NCBI GenBank assembly: GCA_963760795.1
Contig: CAVXEP010000028.1
Span: forward strand, 1-64,000
DNA length: 64,000 nt
Direction: 5' to 3'
From: an uncultured delta proteobacterium
GTDB taxonomy: Bacteria > Desulfobacterota > Binatia > UBA9968
Within the stretch, counting starts at the first letter, position 1. Each line of letters starts with the position of its first letter. The notes beneath the pieces were generated by a model. The model saw nothing but the letters and a program-made list of their open reading frames with translations. It made no database searches and was not told the DNA's origin. Made by a program: the position numbers and the translations under genes. Of this stretch, positions 32,424 to 46,831 are shown piece by piece.

Positions 32424-33821
32424 TTACTCGTACTGGCGCACGTCGACCACTTTGCCGTTGAGCGCCGCCGCCACCACCATCGCCGGACTCATCAATAGGG
32501 TGCGGCCTTGCGGGCTGCCCTGGCGGCCGATGAAATTGCGGTTGGACGACGACGCGGAAACTTCCCGGCCGTTGAGCTTGTCGGGATTCATCGCCAGGCA
32601 CATCGAACAGCCGGCTTCGCGCCATTGAAATCCTGCTTCTTCGAATATTTTATCCAGCCCCTCGGCCTCGGCGAGTTTTTTGACCTCCGCGGAGCCAGGT
32701 ACGACCAGAGCGCGCACGTTAGGATTTACCTTACGCCCCTTGGCAATTTTTGCCGCCGCCCGAAAATCCGCAAGCCGGCCGTTGGTGCAGGAACCGATAA
32801 ACGCAACGTTGACCGGCGTGCCGATAATCGGCGCACCCGGCGTCCAGCCCATATGCTCGTAGGCTTTCTTCGCGCTCTCGGGATCGCTCGACTTGTCCGG
32901 CAACGGCAGTTTTTCGGAAACCCCAACCGACTGGCCCGGATTGATGCCCCAGGTCACCGTCGGCTCAATGTCTTTGCCTTGGTAATTCACGACGTCGTCG
33001 TACTTGGCGACGGCGTCGGACGCCACGGATTGCCAGTACTTCACCGCCTTGTCGAAAGCCTCGCCCTTGGGCGCGTGAGGGCGGCCTTTGAGGTAGTCGA
33101 AAGTGGTTTGATCCGGGTTGACGTAGCCGACCAAGGCGCCGCCTTCGATGCTCATGTTGCACACGGTCATGCGCTCTTCCATGTTCATCCGGTCGATAAC
33201 CGCGCCGCCGTATTCGTAGGCGAAGCCCTTGCCGCCGCTGACGCCCAATTGCCGGATGATATGTAAGATCACGTCTTTGGCATAAACGCCGGTGCCGATA
33301 GTGCCGTTGATGTTGATGCGGCGCACTTTCAATTTGTCCATCGCCAGCGTCTGAGTCGCCAAGACATCGCGCACCTGGCTGGTGCCGATGCCGAAAGCTA
33401 ATGTACCGAACGCCCCATGAGTGCTGGTATGGCTGTCGCCGCATGCCAGCGTCATGCCCGGCTGGGTGAGTCCCAGCTGCGGGCCGATAACATGGACGAT
33501 GCCTTGGTTCATGCTGTCCAGGCCGAAGAATTCCACGCCGAACTGCGCGACGTTCCTTTCCAGCGCTTGGGTGAGATCCTCCGCTTCTTTGTCAAGAAAC
33601 GGCCGCTGGCGCATGTCGGTGGGAACGATGTGATCAACGGTCGCGAAGGTGCGATCGCGAAACGCCACATCCATGCCCTTTTCCCTCAGCATATCGAACG
33701 CCGGCGCGGTGGTGATCTCATGAATTAAATGTAACCCGATAAAGAGCTGGGTTTGACCGGTCGGCAGGATACCCACCGAATGCGACTGCCAAATCTTATC
33801 GTAAAGAGTCCGTTCGGCCAT
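32424..33821 (-). CDS. leuC: 3-isopropylmalate dehydratase large subunit
   Basis: [39 protein letters not shown]; ATG 33821. Confidence 0.95.
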
Positions 33822-34028
33822 TGAGAGATTCTCCTTCGGCGGGATAATATCGGTCGGTATCTGGGACTTCAAGAGCCGTGTAGGGATGCGAGATTGAACT
33901 GCGATATTACGGTGAATTGATCATAAAAATATTCCCCGTGTTCGCAACTCGTGATCGTGCTCATCTCAAGTTAGGAACCTCCAGAAGACACGCGTGGCAA
34001 ACTAAACATTCTCAGCCAACTTCCATTT

Positions 34029-38400: not shown

Positions 38401-39495
38401 CTATCCCTTCGCTGCCGCGATCTTGTCGCGCACCAACTGGCCCATCTGCTTGCAGCCCAACAGCTTGCAACCGGGCTCTTGAATATCCGCCGTGCGGTAG
38501 CCTTCGTCGAGAACATCTTCGACCGCCTTTTCGATACGGTCCGCCGCCGAGCCCTGGTCAAACGAGTAACGCAACATCATCGCGACGCTGAGTATCGTCG
38601 CCAGCGGATTAGCTTTGTCCTGGCCCATAATATCTGGGGCGCTGCCATGCACCGGTTCGTACATGCCGACTTTCCCGCCAAGGCTTGCTGACGGCAGCAT
38701 GCCGATGGAGCCGGTGAGCATCGCCGCCTCGTCGCTTAAAATATCGCCGAACATATTGGTCGTCACGACGACATCGAACTGCCGGGGATTGCGGATCAAT
38801 TGCATGGCGCAGTTGTCGACCAGGATATGTTCCAACTCGATACCGGCGTAGCCCTCCTCTTTTTTGTGAATGCGCGTCACCACCTTGCGCCATAGTTCGG
38901 TGACCTCGAGAACATTGGCCTTGTCGACCGACGTCACTTTCTTGCGCCGCTTGAGCGCCGCCTGAAACGCCACATGGGCGATGCGTTCGATCTCCGGCGT
39001 GGTGTAGACTTCAGTGTTGACACCGCGCTCGGTGCCGTCGGGAAGCATCGTCACGCCCTTGGGTTCGCCAAAATAAATCCCGCCGGTGAGCTCGCGCACC
39101 ACCAGCATATCAGTACCCTCGACCACCTCCCGCTTGAGCGTCGACGCCGAGGCCAGCGCCGAAAATAATTTAACCGGGCGTAAATTGGCGAATAGGCCCA
39201 ACTCTAGGCGTAACGCTAAGAGCGCGCGCTCGGGCCGGATCGCATAGTCGAGACCATCCCACTTAGGGCCGCCCATGGCGCCGAGCAAAACCGCATCGCT
39301 CTGCTTGGCGAGATTCAACACCGCATCGGTGAGCGGCTTGCCGTGGGCGTCGATGGATGCGCCGCCGACGATGCCGGGCTCCAGTGAAACGGTGAAGCCG
39401 TAAAGCTGCGCTACCTGTTTGAGCACCTGCGTGCCTTCGCCCATCACTTCAGGGCCGATGCCGTCTCCGGGTAAAACCGCGATGTTGTAGTTCAT
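38401..39495 (-). CDS. leuB: 3-isopropylmalate dehydrogenase
   Basis: [47 protein letters not shown]. Confidence 0.95.
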
Positions 39496-41057
39496 GGTCC
39501 CTCTTTTTCCACCACCTGCCGATAGCGTTTACGTTCTTCCAATTTATTGAGCGCGTTGATATACGCTAGCGCGCTCGCCATGATGATGTCGGTGTGCGAG
39601 CCCTGGCCCGAGACGCGGATGCCGGCGTCTTCGATCAAGCAGGCGACTTCTCCCTGCGCATCCGTGCCGCCGGTAAGCGCATTGACCGAGTAGCGCACCA
39701 GCTGCGACTGCGAATCGGTTATTTTGGTGATCACCTTGTAACAGGCATCGACCACGCCGTCGCCCGAGGCATGGTCCATCTTTTCCCCATCGGCGACGCG
39801 CATCTTGACGGTCGCCGTCGGCACCCCGTCGGTGCTCGAGTTGACGTTCATGTAGAGCAGCTCGAACTTATCCGGCCGCCCCGGCATGCGCAGAACTTCC
39901 TCGGCAACGACGGCTTCAATATCCTCGTCGTAAACGTTTTTCTTCTTGTCAGCCAATTCTTTGAAGCGCACGAAGGCGCGGTTCATATCTTCCTTGCTCA
40001 AGTTGAACCCCAGATGCTTCAACCGCTCATCGAAGGCATGGCGGCCGGAATGTTTGCCCATGACCAGTTTATTCCCCGGAATGCCGATGGACTCCGGCGT
40101 CATGATCTCGTAGGTCTGTTTATGCTTGAGCACGCCGTCTTGATGAATGCCGGCCTCATGTGCGAAGGCGTTGTCGCCGACGATCGGTTTGTTGATCGGG
40201 ATCGCGATCCCGGTCACCTGCGACAGCAAACGCGAGCTCGGAAAAAGCTGCTCACTGTGAATGTTGGTGTCGAGGTTGAGATAATTCTTGCGCGTGCGCA
40301 GCGCCATGACCACTTCCTCGAGAGAAGTATTACCGGCGCGCTCGCCAATGCCGTTAATTGTGCACTCGATCTGGCGCGCTCCGTTGTGCACCGCTGCCAG
40401 GGAATTGGCCACCGCCAGGCCCAGATCGTTGTGGCAGTGGGCGCTCCAGATCACCCGATCGCCGCCGGCGGTACGCTCGATCAAATTGGCGATCAGTGCG
40501 CCGAATTCTGATGGAATCGCGTAGCCGGTGGTATCCGGGACATTGAGAGTCTTGGCACCGGCGCGGATCACCTCACGGAAAATCTGCAGCAAAAACTCGG
40601 GGTCGCTGCGCGAAGCGTCCTCAGCCGAGAACTCGACATAATCGGTAAACTGCTTGGCGTAGCTAACCGCTTTGACCGCTGCTTCAACCACCTGTTCACG
40701 CGTCATGCGCAGTTTGTGCTTGAGATGAATATCCGAGGTCGCGATGAAAGTATGAATCCCCGGCTTCTTGGCGCCCTCCACCGCCTTCAGGGCGCGGTTA
40801 ATATCGCCCTCCTGGGCACGCGCCAAACTCACCACCCGCGGCTGGCTGACCTCTTGCGCGACTCGCCGCACTGACTCGAAGTCGCCATCCGACGATGCCG
40901 CGAAACCCGCTTCGATGACATCGACGCCGAGCTTCTCCAACTGGCGCGCGATCACGACCTTTTGCTCCACCGTCATGCTCGCCCCCGGCGATTGCTCGCC
41001 GTCGCGGAGCGTCGTATCGAAAATTTGTACTACGTTATCGTTGGCCATCTGATCCAT
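39492..41057 (-). CDS. leuA: 2-isopropylmalate synthase
   Basis: [37 protein letters not shown]; C-terminal allosteric domain. Confidence 0.96.
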
Positions 41058-41096
41058 TTAAATGTCTCCTCTACCGTTGTCCGCCAGCCCACCCCG

Positions 41097-41132
41097 AAAA
41101 GAAAACTCCCGCGGCAGGGCCAACGGGAGTTT
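41097..41132 (-). terminator. intrinsic terminator/attenuator between pssA and leuA
   Basis: Minus strand AAACTCCCG-TTGGCCCTGCCG-CGGGAG-TTTTCTTTT; competing partner CGACGGGAGT at 41200-41191. Confidence 0.75.
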
Positions 41133-41158
41133 ATTTCGCCTTTACTCGAGCCGGAAAA

Positions 41159-42019
41159 TTATGGCAACGCTTGCGCCGTCTGCCGTCTCGACTCCCGTCG
41201 TTGCTTAAGCTTGGTTAAGCACCATAACAAGGGCCCGGATAATGTGTACAGTAAGACAATCGCAAAAAACATAATATGCCGTTGGGCAATAATCAGTGTA
41301 ATCAAAATCACGCCGGAAAGAAACATCCATTCCGGGTGCCGTTTCCTCATGTCATTATTTTTCAAACTGAAGTACGGAATATTGCTAACCATCAGAATCG
41401 CCAAACCGTAAATCACCAGAAGAAACGTCAAGTGGCGCGTCGGCGCCCCCTCGAAACCCATATAGTAATACAATATCACCGACGCGGTAATCATCTGCGC
41501 CGCGGCGGGAATCGGCAGACCGACGAAATGATTCTTCGCCGGTCCTTGGGCCTGGACATTGAAACGCGATAGCCGCGCCGCACCACACACCACATAAGTA
41601 GCCGCCGCCAGCCAACCCCAGTTCTGCCAAGGCATAAGAGCCCAGATATAAACCAAAACCGCTGGCGCGACGCCGAAAGCAACCACATCAGCCAAGGAAT
41701 CGAACTCGACGCCGAACTGGCTGGTAGTCCGAGTCAACCTGGCGACATACCCGTCCACGCCATCGAACACGTTGGCGAGCAGAATCAGTAAAGCCGCGTT
41801 GACATACTCGCCGCGAAAGGTCGCGATGATCGAAAAAAATCCGCACATCAAATTGCCGGCGGTAAACAGACTGGGAATCAGATAAACGCCCTTGCGCAAT
41901 TTCTCCGCCGGCATTCTTTGGCGCAAGGTCATGCGGGGTCGCTCACGCCGACGGCGCAGCAACCGCACGTTATGTTTCTCCTCCGGCCGCTCGGGGTCTG
42001 GAGCATTCATCGCGCTCAT
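41159..42019 (-). CDS. pssA: CDP-diacylglycerol--serine O-phosphatidyltransferase
   Basis: DGVDGYVARL..SQFGVEFDSLADVVAFGVAP, ARLSRFN, FVGLPIP. Confidence 0.94.
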   Translation of the reverse strand: MSAMNAPDPERPEEKHNVRLLRRRRERPRMTLRQRMPAEKLRKGVYLIPSLFTAGNLMCGFFSIIATFRGEYVNAALLILLANVFDGVDGYVARLTRTTSQFGVEFDSLADVVAFGVAPAVLVYIWALMPWQNWGWLAAATYVVCGAARLSRFNVQAQGPAKNHFVGLPIPAAAQMITASVILYYYMGFEGAPTRHLTFLLVIYGLAILMVSNIPYFSLKNNDMRKRHPEWMFLSGVILITLIIAQRHIMFFAIVLLYTLSGPLLWCLTKLKQRRESRRQTAQALP

Positions 42020-42672
42020 AGAAACCTCCCGATAATGGTCTCCCCGCCTTTAACACGCTGCCCCTCCGCCGCTTCGATACGACACCCATGAGGCAAATAT
42101 ATATCGATACGCGAGCCGAACATGATCAAACCGAAACGTTCGCCACGGTCCAACATATCGCCGGCTTTCGAGCGGCACACAATGCGCCTGGCGACTGCAC
42201 CGGCGATTTGCACCACACCCCAATTGCGCTCCCGTTCGTCGACCAGATGCAGCGCGTTCTGCTCGTTGACGCGCGAGGCGTCTTCCTTAAAGGCCGGGAG
42301 AAATTTGCCGGTTTGATAGCGCACGTCGTTAACCCTGCCGGCCACCGGCGCGCGATTGATATGAACGTCGAGGGGCGACAGAAAGATGCTGATACGCGTC
42401 ACCGCGTCGGCGAACAAGCCATCGCCATGGACCGGCGCGATGGTGACAACCCGGCCGTCGGCGGGCGAAACCACCAAGCCGTCGCCGGTGGGGATCTCGC
42501 GTTCCGGATCGCGAAAAAATGCCGCGATCCCCAGCGTTAGCAGCGCCAATGCAATACCAGCCATCTGCCAGCGCAACAAGAACGCTAGCAACGTCAGCGC
42601 TGCCGCCGACAAAATCAACGGCCAACCTTCCTTGGCGATTGGCATCGTGCGTGGCCTAGAGCTTTCCCCCAT
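42016..42672 (-). CDS. psd: phosphatidylserine decarboxylase proenzyme
   Basis: FFRDPER, SPADG, DVHINRAP, QIAG, FGSR self-cleavage site. Confidence 0.94.
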   Translation of the reverse strand: MGESSRPRTMPIAKEGWPLILSAAALTLLAFLLRWQMAGIALALLTLGIAAFFRDPEREIPTGDGLVVSPADGRVVTIAPVHGDGLFADAVTRISIFLSPLDVHINRAPVAGRVNDVRYQTGKFLPAFKEDASRVNEQNALHLVDERERNWGVVQIAGAVARRIVCRSKAGDMLDRGERFGLIMFGSRIDIYLPHGCRIEAAEGQRVKGGETIIGRFL

Positions 42673-42684
42673 CAGATCAATCGC

Positions 42685-43701
42685 CTAATTCTTACTTCGG
42701 TCGACCAGGCGATTCTGGCCCAGCCAGGGCATCATCGACCGCAACCCGGCGCCGACTTTCTCCAGCGGATGATTGGCCTGTTCTTTTCTGAGCTCGCTAA
42801 AGTGCGGCGATCCCGTCTTAAACTCGTTGATCCACTCGTCGGCGAATTGACCGGATTGAATGTCCTTTAAAATTTTCTGCATCGCTTGGCGCACTTCCGG
42901 GCCGATTACACGCTTGCCTCGGGTCAAGTCGCCGTATTCCGCAGTGTTGCTGATCGAGTAGCGCATGTTCGTCATGCCGCCCTCGTAGATCAGATCGACG
43001 ATCAGCTTGACTTCATGGACGCATTCGAAATACGCCATCTCGGGCGGATAACCGGCATCGACGAGAGTTTCATAACCAGCATGAATCAACTCGCATAGAC
43101 CACCGCACAATACCGATTGTTCGCCGAAGAGATCAGTCTCGGTTTCGTCCTTGAAGGTGGTCTCGATCACCGCAGCGCGTGCGCCGCCGATGGCGCTGGC
43201 GTAGGCTAAGCCCATCTTGGTCGTATCGCCGCTGGGATCTTGATGTACCGCCAAAAGGCACGGCACGCCGCGTCCCTTCTCGTACTCGCTACGAACCAGG
43301 TGGCCGGGTCCCTTGGGGGCGACCATGAAAACGTTGACACCCGCCGGGGCAACAATTCTCTTGAAATGAATATTGAAACCATGGCCAAAGGCCAAGTAGT
43401 TGCCACTCTTCAATCCCGGCCGGATTTCCTTTTCGTAAGCATCGCCCTGCAACTCGTCGGGCAATAGGACCATGACGATATCCGCCAACGCTACCGCCTC
43501 GGCGGTTTCGACGACTTTGAGGCCGGCGTTTTCCGCCTTCGCCCATGAGCTGCTGCCTTGGCGCAAGCCGACTACGACATCGACGCCCGAGTCGCGCAAA
43601 TTATTGGCATGCGCATGCCCCTGGCTGCCGTAACCGAGCACGGCGACTTTTTTGCCCTTCAACACATTGAGATCCGCATCGCGGTCGTAATAAACTTGCA
43701 T
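42685..43701 (-). CDS. ilvC: ketol-acid reductoisomerase
   Basis: [33 protein letters not shown]. Confidence 0.96.
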
Positions 43702-43734: not shown

Positions 43735-43763
43735 ACTATGCCGTTTGACCCGCCCTAAGTCAA
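43735..43763 (-). promoter_or_regulatory. sigma70-like promoter of ilvC-psd-pssA-leuA
   Basis: TTGACT-N17-CATAGT, 34 nt upstream of ilvC. Confidence 0.6.
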
Positions 43764-43944: not shown

Positions 43945-44157
43945 ATCAAACCCGGGCTCGCTGGCGCGGCGGTTAGGCGTGCGATCGTTCAGGGGAATGA
44001 AAATGCCGGTGACACCGTCGAAAAAACTGCCGACGCCATCAAAGAGGCCGGTGCCAACGCCAAGGATGCCGGTGGTGGCGCAAGGGACAAGGCTGTCGAT
44101 AAAGCCAAGGAAGTTGGCAAGAACGCCGCCGATAAAATGAAAGATATCATGACCTAA
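43945..44157 (+). pseudogene. short hydrophilic LEA/CsbD-like reading frame lacking an in-frame start
   Basis: NAGDTVEKTADAIKEAGANAKDAGGGARDKAVDKAKEVGKNAADKMKDIMT-stop; ATG at 43997 is one base out of frame. Confidence 0.5.
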
Positions 44158-44270: not shown

Positions 44271-44792
44271 TCACGGTTTTAGCAAAGCCGGCTCCCGGCG
44301 TGGCGACGCGGTTCTGGTAGTTTCGCGGGCGATCGCAATCCGGCCGGTGCGGATCAAGTCCTTAATTCCCAACGGCTTGAGCATGTTGATCATGGCCTCG
44401 ACTTTGTCGACATCACCGGTAATTTCAATCGTGTAAGTGAACGGCGACGAGTCGACGATCTTGGCGCGAAAGATTGACGCAATGCGAATCGCTTCGTCGC
44501 GGTGCTCCGGCTTGGTGTGGACTTTGATCAACACCGTCTCGCGGTCCAAAAAGTCGGTTTCGGTATGATCGATGACGCTCAACACCTCGACGACTTTGTT
44601 GAGCTGCTTCATGATCTGTTCAATGATGCGGTCATCACCGACGGTCACGATCGTGATCATCGAAGTCGTCGGGTCCAGGGTAGGCGCCACCGACAAACTC
44701 TCGATATTGTACCCTCTTGCGCTAAAAAGACCTGCGACTCTGGCTAAGACGCCGAATTTATTTTCGACAAGAACCGATATGATATGTTCCAT
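44271..44792 (-). CDS. ilvN: acetolactate synthase regulatory subunit
   Basis: SVLVENKFGVLARVAGLFSARGYNIESLSV ACT domain. Confidence 0.95.
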   Translation of the reverse strand: MEHIISVLVENKFGVLARVAGLFSARGYNIESLSVAPTLDPTTSMITIVTVGDDRIIEQIMKQLNKVVEVLSVIDHTETDFLDRETVLIKVHTKPEHRDEAIRIASIFRAKIVDSSPFTYTIEITGDVDKVEAMINMLKPLGIKDLIRTGRIAIARETTRTASPRREPALLKP

Positions 44793-44804: not shown

Positions 44805-46586
44805 TCAGGCAGGAAGAACCCCCTCGCCTTCATCCACCTTTCTCTTATGTACTGTTCCACCCTTGCGCGCTTGAATGAGTTCCGGCGGGTCTTCGAGCAT
44901 CATTTCATGCTGCGCTCCGCCGGCGGGAATCATCGGATAGCAATTTTCGAACGGATCGGTATGAATGTCCATCAACACCGGCCCCTTGTGCTTTAACCCT
45001 TCTTTGAGAACCCCTTCGACTTCGCCGGGCTTCAGCGCGCGCAAGCCTTTAATGCCATAGGCATCGGCAAGCTTCACGAAGTCCGGCTTATTTCCCAGCA
45101 GACTCGCCGAATAGCGGCTCTCGTAAAATAGGTCTTGCCACTGGCGCACCATGCCGTGCACGCCGTTGTTGAGCAAAACGATCTTCACCGGTAGGTTATG
45201 TTCGGCCGCCACCACCAGCTCCTGCAGATTCATCTGAAAACTGCCTTCGCTGGTGATACAAACCACCTGGCGGTTGGGGAACGCGACCTGGGCGCCGATG
45301 GCGGCTGGGAAACCAAAACCCATGGTGCCCAAACCACCCGAGGTAAGCCACGTGCGCGGCTTTTTTCCTTTGAAATACTGTGCCGCGAACATCTGGTGCT
45401 GGCCGACATCGGTGGCGACGATGGCTTCATGCTTGGTCAGCTCGTAGAGCTTCTCGACAACATACTGCGGCTTGGTGATCTTATCGTCTTGCTTGTAAAC
45501 CAGCGGATGCTCTTTCTTCCAAGCATTGATCTGCTTGAGCCATGGCGCGCGCCGCGCTTTCATTGCGGTCGGGTTACCGTCCAGCGAACGCAACACAACG
45601 TTCATCTGGCGCAGCACCGATTTGACATCACCGACGATCGGAATATGGGCATGAAACGTCTTGCGTATCGACGTCGGATCGATATCGATATGAATGACCC
45701 GGGCCTCGGGGCAAAATTCCGAGAGTTTGCCGGTGACGCGATCGTCGAACCGAGCGCCCACGGCGATCAATAAATCTGCCTGGTGCATCGCCATGTTGCT
45801 CCAGTAGCCACCATGCATTCCCAACATCCCCAAGGATAGCTCGTGGGTTCCAGGGAAGGTACCGAGCCCCATTAGCGTCATGGTCACAGGAATTTGCGTG
45901 ATCTCAGCGAGCTCGCGGACCTCGTCGGCAGCATCGCCAAACACCGCGCCGCCGCCGACGTAGATGATCGCCCTCTTCGCCGTCATGATCGCTTCAGCCG
46001 CTTGCTTGATCTGCGATTTATCGCCGCCGGTGAACGGGCGATAGCCGCGCAAATTGATCTTGTCAGGATATTTGAATTCAGCCTTGGCCATACTGACATC
46101 TTTGGGGATATCGACCAAAACCGGCCCCGGTCTGCCGCTGGTCGCGATGTAAAACGCTTCCTTCACCGCTTGAGCGAGATCGTTCACGTCTTTCACCAAC
46201 ACGTTATGCTTAGTGCAGGGGCGGCTGATTCCGACATTATCGGCTTCTTGGAACGCATCGTTGCCGATCAGATCGGTGGAAACTTGCCCGGTGAAAGCGA
46301 CCAACGGCACCGAGTCCATGTGCGCGTCGGCCAAGCCGGTGACAATATTCGTCATGCCGGGCCCGGAAGTCACCAGCACCACGCCAGCCTTGCCGGTCGC
46401 CTTGGCATAGCCCTCGGCCATATGGGCTGCACCCTGCTCATGGCGAGTCAAGATCAACTGCAAATCTTTGCGCTGGCACAAGACATCGAAAATTTTCAGG
46501 ACGACGCCGCCGGGCAAACCGAAAATAGTTTTCACCCCTTCGCGGCGCAGCGATTCGCAAAAAATTTCTGCTCCGGTAATTTTCAT
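44805..46586 (-). CDS. ilvB: acetolactate synthase large subunit
   Basis: RHEQGAAHMA, TSGPG, DAFQEAD, RFDDRVTG, SGGLGTMGFG, GMVRQWQ. Confidence 0.96.
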   Translation of the reverse strand: MKITGAEIFCESLRREGVKTIFGLPGGVVLKIFDVLCQRKDLQLILTRHEQGAAHMAEGYAKATGKAGVVLVTSGPGMTNIVTGLADAHMDSVPLVAFTGQVSTDLIGNDAFQEADNVGISRPCTKHNVLVKDVNDLAQAVKEAFYIATSGRPGPVLVDIPKDVSMAKAEFKYPDKINLRGYRPFTGGDKSQIKQAAEAIMTAKRAIIYVGGGAVFGDAADEVRELAEITQIPVTMTLMGLGTFPGTHELSLGMLGMHGGYWSNMAMHQADLLIAVGARFDDRVTGKLSEFCPEARVIHIDIDPTSIRKTFHAHIPIVGDVKSVLRQMNVVLRSLDGNPTAMKARRAPWLKQINAWKKEHPLVYKQDDKITKPQYVVEKLYELTKHEAIVATDVGQHQMFAAQYFKGKKPRTWLTSGGLGTMGFGFPAAIGAQVAFPNRQVVCITSEGSFQMNLQELVVAAEHNLPVKIVLLNNGVHGMVRQWQDLFYESRYSASLLGNKPDFVKLADAYGIKGLRALKPGEVEGVLKEGLKHKGPVLMDIHTDPFENCYPMIPAGGAQHEMMLEDPPELIQARKGGTVHKRKVDEGEGVLPA

Positions 46587-46612: not shown

Positions 46613-46831
46613 CTAACGGTGCTTGCCGAGCAGCTCCATCATCTTGTCTTTGCCGACAAGCTTAAGTTTTTGGATACGTTTCATTTCAACTTCTTCATCC
46701 GCCGACAAATGCACTTTATGCTGAAATGCGGCAAGTTGCTTCTCAAGGGCTAGGTGCTCATCGTAGTATTTCTTAAGCTCTGGATCCTTATCCAGCAGGG
46801 AGACGATCACCGTTTCTTCACTAATTTCCAT
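46613..46831 (-). CDS. DUF465 (YdcH-like) small coiled-coil protein
   Basis: LYxEH..LEK pattern, KLKLVGKDKM; GGAGG RBS. Confidence 0.75.
   Translation of the reverse strand: MEISEETVIVSLLDKDPELKKYYDEHLALEKQLAAFQHKVHLSADEEVEMKRIQKLKLVGKDKMMELLGKHR

Follow-up and report, generated by a model that had tools for sequence, protein, structure and literature searches.

How leuA and leuB, two genes of leucine synthesis, are controlled when the gene directly before them encodes an enzyme of phospholipid synthesis is the question raised by a locus in the DNA studied here, a stretch of 64,000 nt (contig CAVXEP010000028.1, positions 1 to 64,000 of the forward strand, hereafter the window) from GCA_963760795.1, a 6.58 Mb assembly of 57% GC that represents an uncultured delta proteobacterium. 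On the minus strand of the window, pssA (CDP-diacylglycerol-serine O-phosphatidyltransferase, 286 aa; 41159..42019; TIGR00473, 147.9 bits with a cut-off of 107) is followed, after a spacer of 101 nt, by leuA (2-isopropylmalate synthase; 39492..41057; NF002086, 769.8 bits). We think that the junction of these two genes probably holds a ribosome-mediated transcription attenuator that senses leucine ahead of leuA-leuB, with the full-length open reading frame (ORF) of pssA as its proposed leader and leuA as the regulated gene. The element is compact, about 160 nt long. This interpretation, which had been put forward in an initial annotation made from the sequence, was supported by every computational test able to discriminate, apart from the exceptions named below.

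The terminator before leuA and its alternative partner

The terminator hairpin lies at 41103..41132 (here and below, features are on the minus strand unless another strand is given). Its stem joins 41132-41123 to 41112-41103, the latter being the 3' arm, C, and an inner stem joins 41121-41119 to 41115-41113; the 5' arm, B (41132-41121), is common to the terminator and the antiterminator, and the U tract UUUUCUUUU (41097..41105) ends 39 nt before the leuA ATG. The fold reaches -22.0 kcal/mol (z = -4.22), a stability attained by none of 200 shuffles, and the hairpin sequence is found once in the 6.58 Mb assembly. The 5' arm has a second partner inside the last codons of pssA, and the two pairings are mutually exclusive. 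Strand A, CGACGGGAGU (41191..41200), lies within pssA codons 274-277 and supplies the 5' strand for the antiterminator: 10 base pairs, including one G-U, can form between CGACGGGAGT (41200-41191) and ACTCCCGTTG (41130-41121), and this partner, ACUCCCGUUG, falls within arm B. An inner helix extends the pairing, joining A', CGAGACGG (41183..41190), to B', CCGGCUCG (41147..41154), which is situated 4 nt after the pssA stop codon, so that the stop itself, a TAA at 41161-41159, is enclosed; one B' pair covaries (GU 7, CG 5, UA 5). The antiterminator loop contains a small hairpin, H (41165..41178), with 96.3% of alignment cells paired, and directly 5' of strand A stands a further hairpin, P0 (41202..41221; 41221-41215 with 41208-41202), which contains Leu-268 and shows compensatory pairs in an alignment of 51 sequences (CG 26, UA 12 and UG 8 at one pair; UA 38 and GC 9 at another). 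It is possible that P0 acts as a pause or synchronising hairpin for polymerase and ribosome. The initial annotation had described a strong intrinsic terminator about 40 nt before leuA, an exclusive second partner of its 5' arm in pssA and an inner helix around the stop, and all three are present, the terminator at 41132-41097 and the inner helix at 41190-41183 with 41154-47.

These elements are conserved. Among 40 relatives, 30 loci were fetched, and in 29 of them pssA is followed by leuA with a spacer of 66-110 nt; all 29 junctions carry the hairpin pattern CTCCCG-YY-GG-N4-6-CCGCGGGAGTTTT at most 80 nt from the pssA stop. When one genome per species was scanned for the pattern, 86 loci were obtained, 73 with both genes, 5 with one gene at the edge of the locus and 8 elsewhere, which places 78 of the 86 matches at the pssA-leuA junction. 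The 8 others match the pattern exactly but belong to unrelated phyla and lie away from pssA and leuA (L045, L053, L059, L061, L065, L083, L098 and L113). Removal of duplicates left 75 distinct pssA-leuA junctions, with PssA 49-100% identical to that of the window, in which the distance from the pssA stop to CTCCCG is 26-35 nt (median 29). The public records that have the element are metagenome-assembled genomes, labelled by their depositors as Candidatus Binatia, Deltaproteobacteria bacterium or Syntrophobacterales.

The terminator stem is invariant in the alignments and hence gives no covariation. For the 20 junctions of the genus, taken with downstream sequence, the RNAalifold consensus is the antiterminator and not the terminator. 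Across A:B, the inner helix, H and P0, 95.8% of cells in this alignment pair, against 40.5-52.6% with slid partners, and both sides have changed in 17 cells, where shuffles give 7.7 +/- 2.3 and 0 of 500 reach 17. In the wider alignment of 51 junctions (PssA identity of at least 59%), scored for A:B and P0, 89.4% of cells pair, against 39.0-49.8% when slid, with 27 double changes against 11.4 +/- 2.6 in shuffles (again 0 of 500). Ranked among 60-nt windows from the surrounding locus, the A:B duplex falls in the top 1% at 40 of the 75 junctions and in the top 5% at 50 of them. The conserved alternative helix that the initial annotation expected in relatives is therefore found in both alignments, its pairing kept with some compensatory changes. 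A possible long-range helix between GUUAUCCG and CGGAU(C)AAC is 95% paired, with zero double changes, and the whole stretch of 171 nt does not fold with unusual stability (z = -0.74). If folding is computed before the 3' arm of the terminator exists and with a ribosome occupying codon 260, 265 or 268, the most stable structure is in each case the antiterminator in full (A:B, A':B' and H), with energies of -33.3, -27.8 and -27.5 kcal/mol, respectively.

Rare leucine codons in the pssA tail

Just upstream of strand A, pssA is rich in leucine. Codons 256-271 include 7 Leu, four of them TTA, and the last TTA ends 15 nt before 41200. The control region proper, codons 256-268 (41216..41254), has its TTA codons at 41254-52, 41242-40, 41227-25 and 41218-16 (Leu 256, 260, 265 and 268) in addition to Leu 257 and 264; the four TTA codons thus sit 15-54 nt upstream of the antiterminator strand. 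The initial annotation had described this run correctly. TTA makes up 5.6% of the Leu codons of the genome (1,913 long ORFs), the binomial probability of at least 4 TTA among 7 Leu is 3.0e-4, and only 3 clusters with 4 or more TTA per 16 codons exist among the 922,519 codons of long ORFs, so the TTA enrichment it had suspected is borne out. In a separate scan of the genome for gene ends with 3 or more TTA or CTA codons per 16, 75 were found among 8,790 ORFs with a length of 150 aa or more. Many of the 75 have Arg-rich tails that by eye resemble non-coding shadow frames; 7 of these ORF ends, pssA included, have a crude terminator.

The leucine cluster, too, holds in relatives as had been proposed, provided that it is read as a cluster of rare codons. 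Within the genus, TTA occupies the positions of Leu 256, 260, 265 and 268 in 16, 20, 20 and 17 of 20 sequences, while among the 19 further Leu columns conserved in pssA, 17 show TTA in 0-2 of 20 sequences; the remaining two are column 264, itself in the tail, with 3, and column 239, which is fixed as TTG. Over the 75 junctions, 249 of the 448 leucines in the 16-codon tail are encoded by TTA or CTA; for the remainder of pssA the count is 140 of 2085. The tail counts agree across the four bands of PssA identity (31/46, 81/122, 53/103 and 84/177). The column of Leu-260 has a rare codon in 70 of 74 sequences (52 TTA, 18 CTA) and that of Leu-265 in 65 of 74. Since TTA and CTA interchange, differ in their first base and are read by different tRNAs, of which tRNA-Leu(UAA) and tRNA-Leu(UAG) were each found as one gene in the genome, the property shared between lineages is codon rarity and not a fixed sequence; the codon pattern argues for selection on rarity rather than on a fixed RNA motif.

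This bias is specific to the lineage. As controls, the end of pssA and the DNA that follows it were taken from 40 genomes belonging to other families in the phylum; 39 tails were used, and one was dropped because its YxxSGP motif was not found. In these tails, which lack the hairpin, rare Leu codons amount to 15 of 113 against a background of 118 of 1161 (odds ratio 1.35, p = 0.33), so that this PssA helix does not generally come with a cluster of rare codons. The amino acid content differs as well, with 6.0 Leu per tail in the attenuator lineage vs 2.9 in the control tails; the run of Leu belongs to a hydrophobic stretch of the protein. Normalised synonymous entropy falls to 0.37-0.50 in the last 50 codons of pssA, against 0.63-0.78 earlier in the gene (gene-wide mean 0.65), and within strand A the synonymous sites of Arg-275 (CGG) and Glu-276 (GAG) are each kept in 19 of 20 genus sequences. 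Elsewhere in pssA, the synonymous sites of codons 238-241 (ATT TTG ATT ACA; 41297-41308, minus strand) are invariant in 18-20 of the 20 genus sequences, and neither a pairing partner nor a promoter was found for this block.

Taken together, structures and codons can be accommodated in the following mechanism. Transcription would come from upstream, probably from the ilvC promoter, and ribosomes would be translating pssA. Should Leu-tRNA be scarce, a ribosome would stall within codons 256-268, on rare Leu codons that are TTA in the window and either TTA or CTA in relatives, with its footprint ending just before 41200, and would in this way free A (41200-41191) and A' (41190-41183) to pair with B (41130-41121) and B' (41154-47) as these emerge. 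The 3' arm of the terminator would be left without a partner, and RNA polymerase would continue into leuA; read-through would thus depend on the pairing of the pssA stretch CGACGGGAG. With Leu-tRNA plentiful, the ribosome would melt A and A', reach the stop codon inside the antiterminator, 4 nt before B', and cover B', whereupon B would pair with C (41112-41103) and transcription would end at the U tract. The stalling, its timing relative to RNA polymerase and the response to leucine are what we infer here from the arrangement of the sequence.

The same junction in other lineages and the transcription unit

Beyond the immediate relatives, a leuA-like gene comes after pssA in 30 of 40 genomes of other families of the phylum, and the synteny is therefore old. 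The initial annotation had suggested that the attenuator could explain why psd-pssA is placed where it is; given that the neighbourhood of psd-pssA and leuA is far older and wider than the attenuator (30 of 40 distant loci), it does not.

What stands between the two genes varies within the class. Of 44 loci from the window's class, 9 have no leuA after pssA, 27 have long spacers and 8 have short ones. Every one of the 27 long spacers (172-342 nt) carries an ORF that starts with ATG, is 24-37 codons long and has 3-7 Leu per 8-codon window, a score that reverse complements reach in 3 of 27 cases and shuffles in 50 of 540. These dedicated leaders of sister families (loci L117, L118, L122, L123 and L161-L196) typically share the core ...GLLL[RST][CST]P... 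(LLL-x-x-P), usually written CTG CTG CTT nnn nnn CCG, and their Leu codons are enriched in CTT (40/182 vs 13/352 in leuA fragments) and CTA (14/182 vs 4/352); GC-rich inverted repeats and a T run, read from the printed sequences, lie 3' of them. No Rfam family matched the spacers of the four such loci scanned (L117, L118, L122 and L123), and we know of no description of dedicated Leu leader peptides in the pssA-leuA spacers of these families. The 8 short spacers (64-110 nt) have no leader ORF, and belong to the window's family (4), to family f83 (3) and to family f80 (1). At the window's own junction there is no small Leu-rich ORF in any other frame, which rules out a dedicated leader hidden in another frame.

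A third solution is present in another family of the phylum, where 2 of 17 loci scanned have a T-box (RF00230) in the pssA-leuA spacer, at L130:692-967 (104.5 bits) and L133:705-969 (107.8 bits); a T-box 5' of leuA has been described in Geobacter (PMC2700814, in excerpt). For the window itself, a T-box and the curated leaders and riboswitches, among them the Rfam Leu_leader, which we take to be RF00512, were rejected as the identity of the element: Rfam gave no family at gathering scores in the window and no T-box at E up to 10 in 40800-41700, the best rows below threshold (E = 0.57 and 2.9) came from the terminator-like part only, and the same T-box model does detect L130 and L133.

Because sister families hold long spacers with a dedicated Leu leader while the window's order has 64-110 nt without a leader ORF, the junction of this order looks like a compacted version of the classical Leu attenuator. 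It can be hypothesized that in this order the dedicated ORF was lost and sensing moved into the last hydrophobic segment of an essential enzyme of lipid synthesis, that this segment gained Leu residues and was recoded to TTA or CTA, and that the basic C-terminal tail became the antiterminator strand; on this scenario the chances seem to us evenly balanced.

The gene order on the minus strand is tsaB, an ORF of 72 aa, ilvB (44805-46586), ilvN (44271-44792), ilvC, psd, pssA, leuA, leuB, asd and truA, with leuC (32433-33815) further down. The genes for ketol-acid reductoisomerase (ilvC; 42685..43701; NF004017, 559 bits) and phosphatidylserine decarboxylase (psd; 42016..42672; NF003678, 254 bits) precede pssA, the psd stop overlapping the pssA start by 4 nt, and leuB (3-isopropylmalate dehydrogenase; 38401..39495; TIGR00169, 494.6 bits) overlaps the leuA stop. 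A promoter-like site before ilvC (43735..43763; TTGACT, 17 nt, CATAGT) has 9 of 12 consensus matches in a consensus scan, and a unit of ilvC-psd-pssA-attenuator-leuA-leuB probably starts there. A terminator-like inverted repeat with flanking A and T runs, which looks bidirectional, comes right after ilvN (about 44236-44190). Because this hairpin follows ilvN and the promoter-like site precedes ilvC, ilvBN is probably a unit separate from ilvC-psd-pssA-leuAB, and the single ilv-leu operon around psd-pssA assumed in the initial annotation would be divided accordingly.

A separate leuA promoter downstream of the terminator would undermine an attenuator at this place. The consensus scan, with other promoter types outside its scope, found no promoter-like site on the minus strand between 43735 and 37357, including the gap between terminator and leuA, where the leuA ribosome-binding site, GGAG, is at 41069-41066. 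In families f2 and f3 only 17-21 nt lie between the hairpin pattern and the leuA ATG, and the T run abuts the ribosome-binding site in these two sister families; there is no room for a promoter in the pssA-leuA spacer of the window's order. The invariant ATTTTGATTACA block was considered as a -35 element and rejected, having been read by eye and having no conserved -10. Upstream of leuC (33821-34028), no terminator was seen by eye. At the other end of the locus, the 72-aa ORF (46613-46831, minus strand) has a good ribosome-binding site and is flanked by a promoter-like site (46902-46874, 10 of 12 matches) on one side and by ilvB on the other; no NCBIfam family matches it, and it is not a Leu, Val or Ile leader. 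A plus-strand open frame (43945-44155), whose product would be rich in Lys, Ala and Asp, converges on ilvN without an in-frame ATG, GTG or TTG start; it may represent a remnant, or else a small gene that starts in an unusual way.

Objections, other explanations and known systems

Several observations weigh against a leucine-sensing attenuator at this junction. The minimum-energy fold of the whole stretch keeps the terminator (-55.4, against -49.4 for the forced antiterminator), and the mechanism therefore needs kinetic trapping; in the E. coli trp attenuator the terminator is likewise favoured thermodynamically over the antiterminator. A ribosome on the stop codon leaves strand A uncovered, with A:B alone still drawable at -17.9, so that termination in leucine excess would have to rely on timing, steric hindrance, a trailing ribosome or displacement by the more stable terminator. 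In family g3, whose PssA is 49-58% identical, A:B is no better than random windows (percentile about 0.44-0.49); the family keeps the hairpin and 4-5 rare Leu codons, and alternative partners vary between its sequences. Covariation of the inner helix, judged from the energies of cognate and non-cognate spacer duplexes, is weak (-18.14 vs -17.21 kcal/mol, with less than 10% of foreign spacers binding as well at 11 of the 75 junctions) and does not discriminate; all clades share purine-rich tails and pyrimidine-rich spacers. Folds drawn before the terminator is complete pair the 5' arm with the coding tail at 59 of the 75 junctions, but shuffled G-rich tails do so in 49% of trials, and this count is therefore not discriminating. 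The junction sequences are moreover related, so that large counts correspond to few independent events.

Some lineages also depart from the expected combination of hairpin and codons. Genus g117 of the window's family (L159 and L160) keeps the hairpin, with GGGAGC before the T run, and has no rare Leu codons in the tail; its T run is interrupted, and the element may be decaying or rewired in this genus. A related compact hairpin also occurs in families f83 and f80, where no clear cluster of rare codons accompanies it. Four metatranscriptome runs from two studies yielded only short contigs of low depth, in which gaps in coverage are uninformative. One contig of 223 nt from an RNA library (run X4), corresponding to 41042-41261 with 2 differences, extends from the pssA tail across the terminator into leuA; DNA carry-over is possible, and the contig gives a weak hint of a read-through transcript. 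Finally, candidate leuA and ilvB leader peptides in Streptomyces, when mutated, did not behave as classical attenuators (PMC1262725, in excerpt), and sequence logic alone can therefore mislead.

Among the other explanations, the one that survives best is an attenuator that is coupled to translation without being specific to leucine. It would report the distance between ribosome and polymerase at the end of pssA, through any slow-down in translation or through polymerase speed, and the rare Leu codons would do no more than tune the delay. The geometry is identical, since a ribosome lagging anywhere upstream also leaves strand A free, and E. coli rph-pyrE offers a precedent in which a full-length ORF serves without control codons (PMC2784333, in excerpt). 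We nevertheless hold this to be improbable, for the bias is specific to Leu codons, in a tail that has extra Leu (6.0 vs 2.9), and the Leu-run leaders of sister families, together with the T-box of another, stand at the same junction before the same gene, which points to a leucine-specific signal.

A trans-acting factor, be it an RNA-binding protein or a small RNA, might instead recognise the near-invariant hairpin ACUCCCG-YYGG-N-CCG-CGGGAGU and decide on termination, complementarity and codon bias being secondary. The stem and part of the loop are indeed invariant across the order, even at about 50% PssA identity and where A:B is not significant, and a related hairpin exists in f83 and f80 without the rare-codon cluster. 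Between the terminator and the ribosome-binding site of leuA stands a further element, D, GGGCUGGCGG (41081..41090), whose sequence complements CCGUUGGCCC in the terminator 5' arm and loop; in the 20 genus sequences 97.2% of its cells are paired, against at most 51.4% when slid, and it is restricted to the genus, being absent from families whose T run abuts the ribosome-binding site. That a genus-specific element pairs with the loop would fit such a factor, yet no linked gene for a candidate factor is present and no Rfam family matches. The invariance can be explicable equally by a three-way constraint, in which A encodes Arg-Arg-Glu and B pairs with both A and C, and the lineage-specific rare Leu codons would be left without explanation, so that we find this account quite unlikely.

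A constitutively leaky terminator that fixes how much ilvC-psd-pssA mRNA is made relative to leuA-leuB mRNA, or that gives stability to the 3' end upstream, with rare Leu codons that serve the folding or membrane insertion of the last PssA helix, would agree with the terminator as minimum-energy fold, with the Leu run in a hydrophobic segment and with the one RNA-library contig that spans the terminator, but is hard to credit when the enrichment is missing from the 39 control tails, which have the same YxxSGP segment, the synonymous constraint runs past the helix into the Arg-Arg-Glu codons of strand A, the pairing is conserved with compensatory changes, and dedicated Leu leaders occupy the same place in sister families.

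If leucine-sensing attenuation with pssA as leader is correct, a full-length membrane enzyme would double as amino-acid sensor for a neighbouring pathway to which it is metabolically unrelated, and the expression of leuA-leuB in these soil bacteria would be tied to the translation of pssA. The coding sequence of pssA would then be shaped at three levels, those of protein, codon speed and RNA pairing, and would offer a clear natural case in which the choice of synonymous sites and amino acids in an enzyme is driven by the regulation of the next gene. Control-codon attenuation would need no dedicated leader peptide, as any translated gene end could serve, and searches for attenuators that require a short upstream ORF would miss such devices. 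Moreover, related lineages would present an evolutionary series at a single junction, comprising a T-box, a dedicated Leu leader and a compact form without a leader.

Of the four features that define leader-peptide attenuators, three are present in the window, namely a terminator, an antiterminator that excludes it and, shortly before the antiterminator strand, rare control codons for the cognate amino acid. The fourth, a short dedicated leader ORF, is missing. The closest classical counterpart is the enterobacterial leu attenuator (leuL), which has, like the window, a terminator before leuA, an exclusive antiterminator 5' strand after the control codons and several rare Leu codons. In enterobacteria, the leu transcript opens with a short ORF that serves as a dedicated leader, and a 1:2 pause hairpin is present; in the window, the control codons are instead codons 256-268 of an enzyme of 286 aa, in the middle of an operon and without a separate ORF. 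Rare Leu codons (CUA) raise the sensitivity of the Salmonella leu attenuator (PMC1183508, in excerpt). The leaders of the sister families resemble the window in having, at the same junction and before the same gene, a Leu run with rare codons (CTT and CTA in their case) followed by inverted repeats and a T run, and differ in their separate ATG ORF of 24-37 aa, their spacer of 172-342 nt and their other hairpin sequences, their structures being known from the printed sequence only. The T-box of the Geobacter type is likewise a Leu-responsive transcription attenuator in the same pssA-leuA spacer, but it senses uncharged tRNA directly through an RNA of roughly 220 nt, which a spacer of 101 nt could not hold. 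The actinobacterial LEU element also combines a candidate Leu leader with an RNA structure before leuA (PMC1262725, in excerpt). Unlike the window, it has a pseudoknot that joins the run of Leu codons to the leuA ribosome-binding site and is probably bound by protein, and it has no pair of terminator and antiterminator.

For the use of a full-length gene as leader, the initial annotation had known of no described case, but there is a precedent in E. coli rph-pyrE, where translation of the full-length upstream enzyme gene to a stop near the attenuator hairpin controls transcription into the next gene (PMC2784333, in excerpt). Unlike in the window, neither amino-acid control codons nor an antiterminator within the coding sequence are part of that system, and its ribosome acts on the terminator itself. 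Bonekamp et al., in 1984, reportedly found that it responds to uridine triphosphate (UTP) by way of polymerase speed, a nearby ribosome preventing termination. Word searches of open-access text found no prior description of control codons within a full-length upstream gene. It would thus be the placement of control codons inside the full-length gene of an upstream enzyme that sets the device proposed here apart from both the classical attenuators and rph-pyrE.

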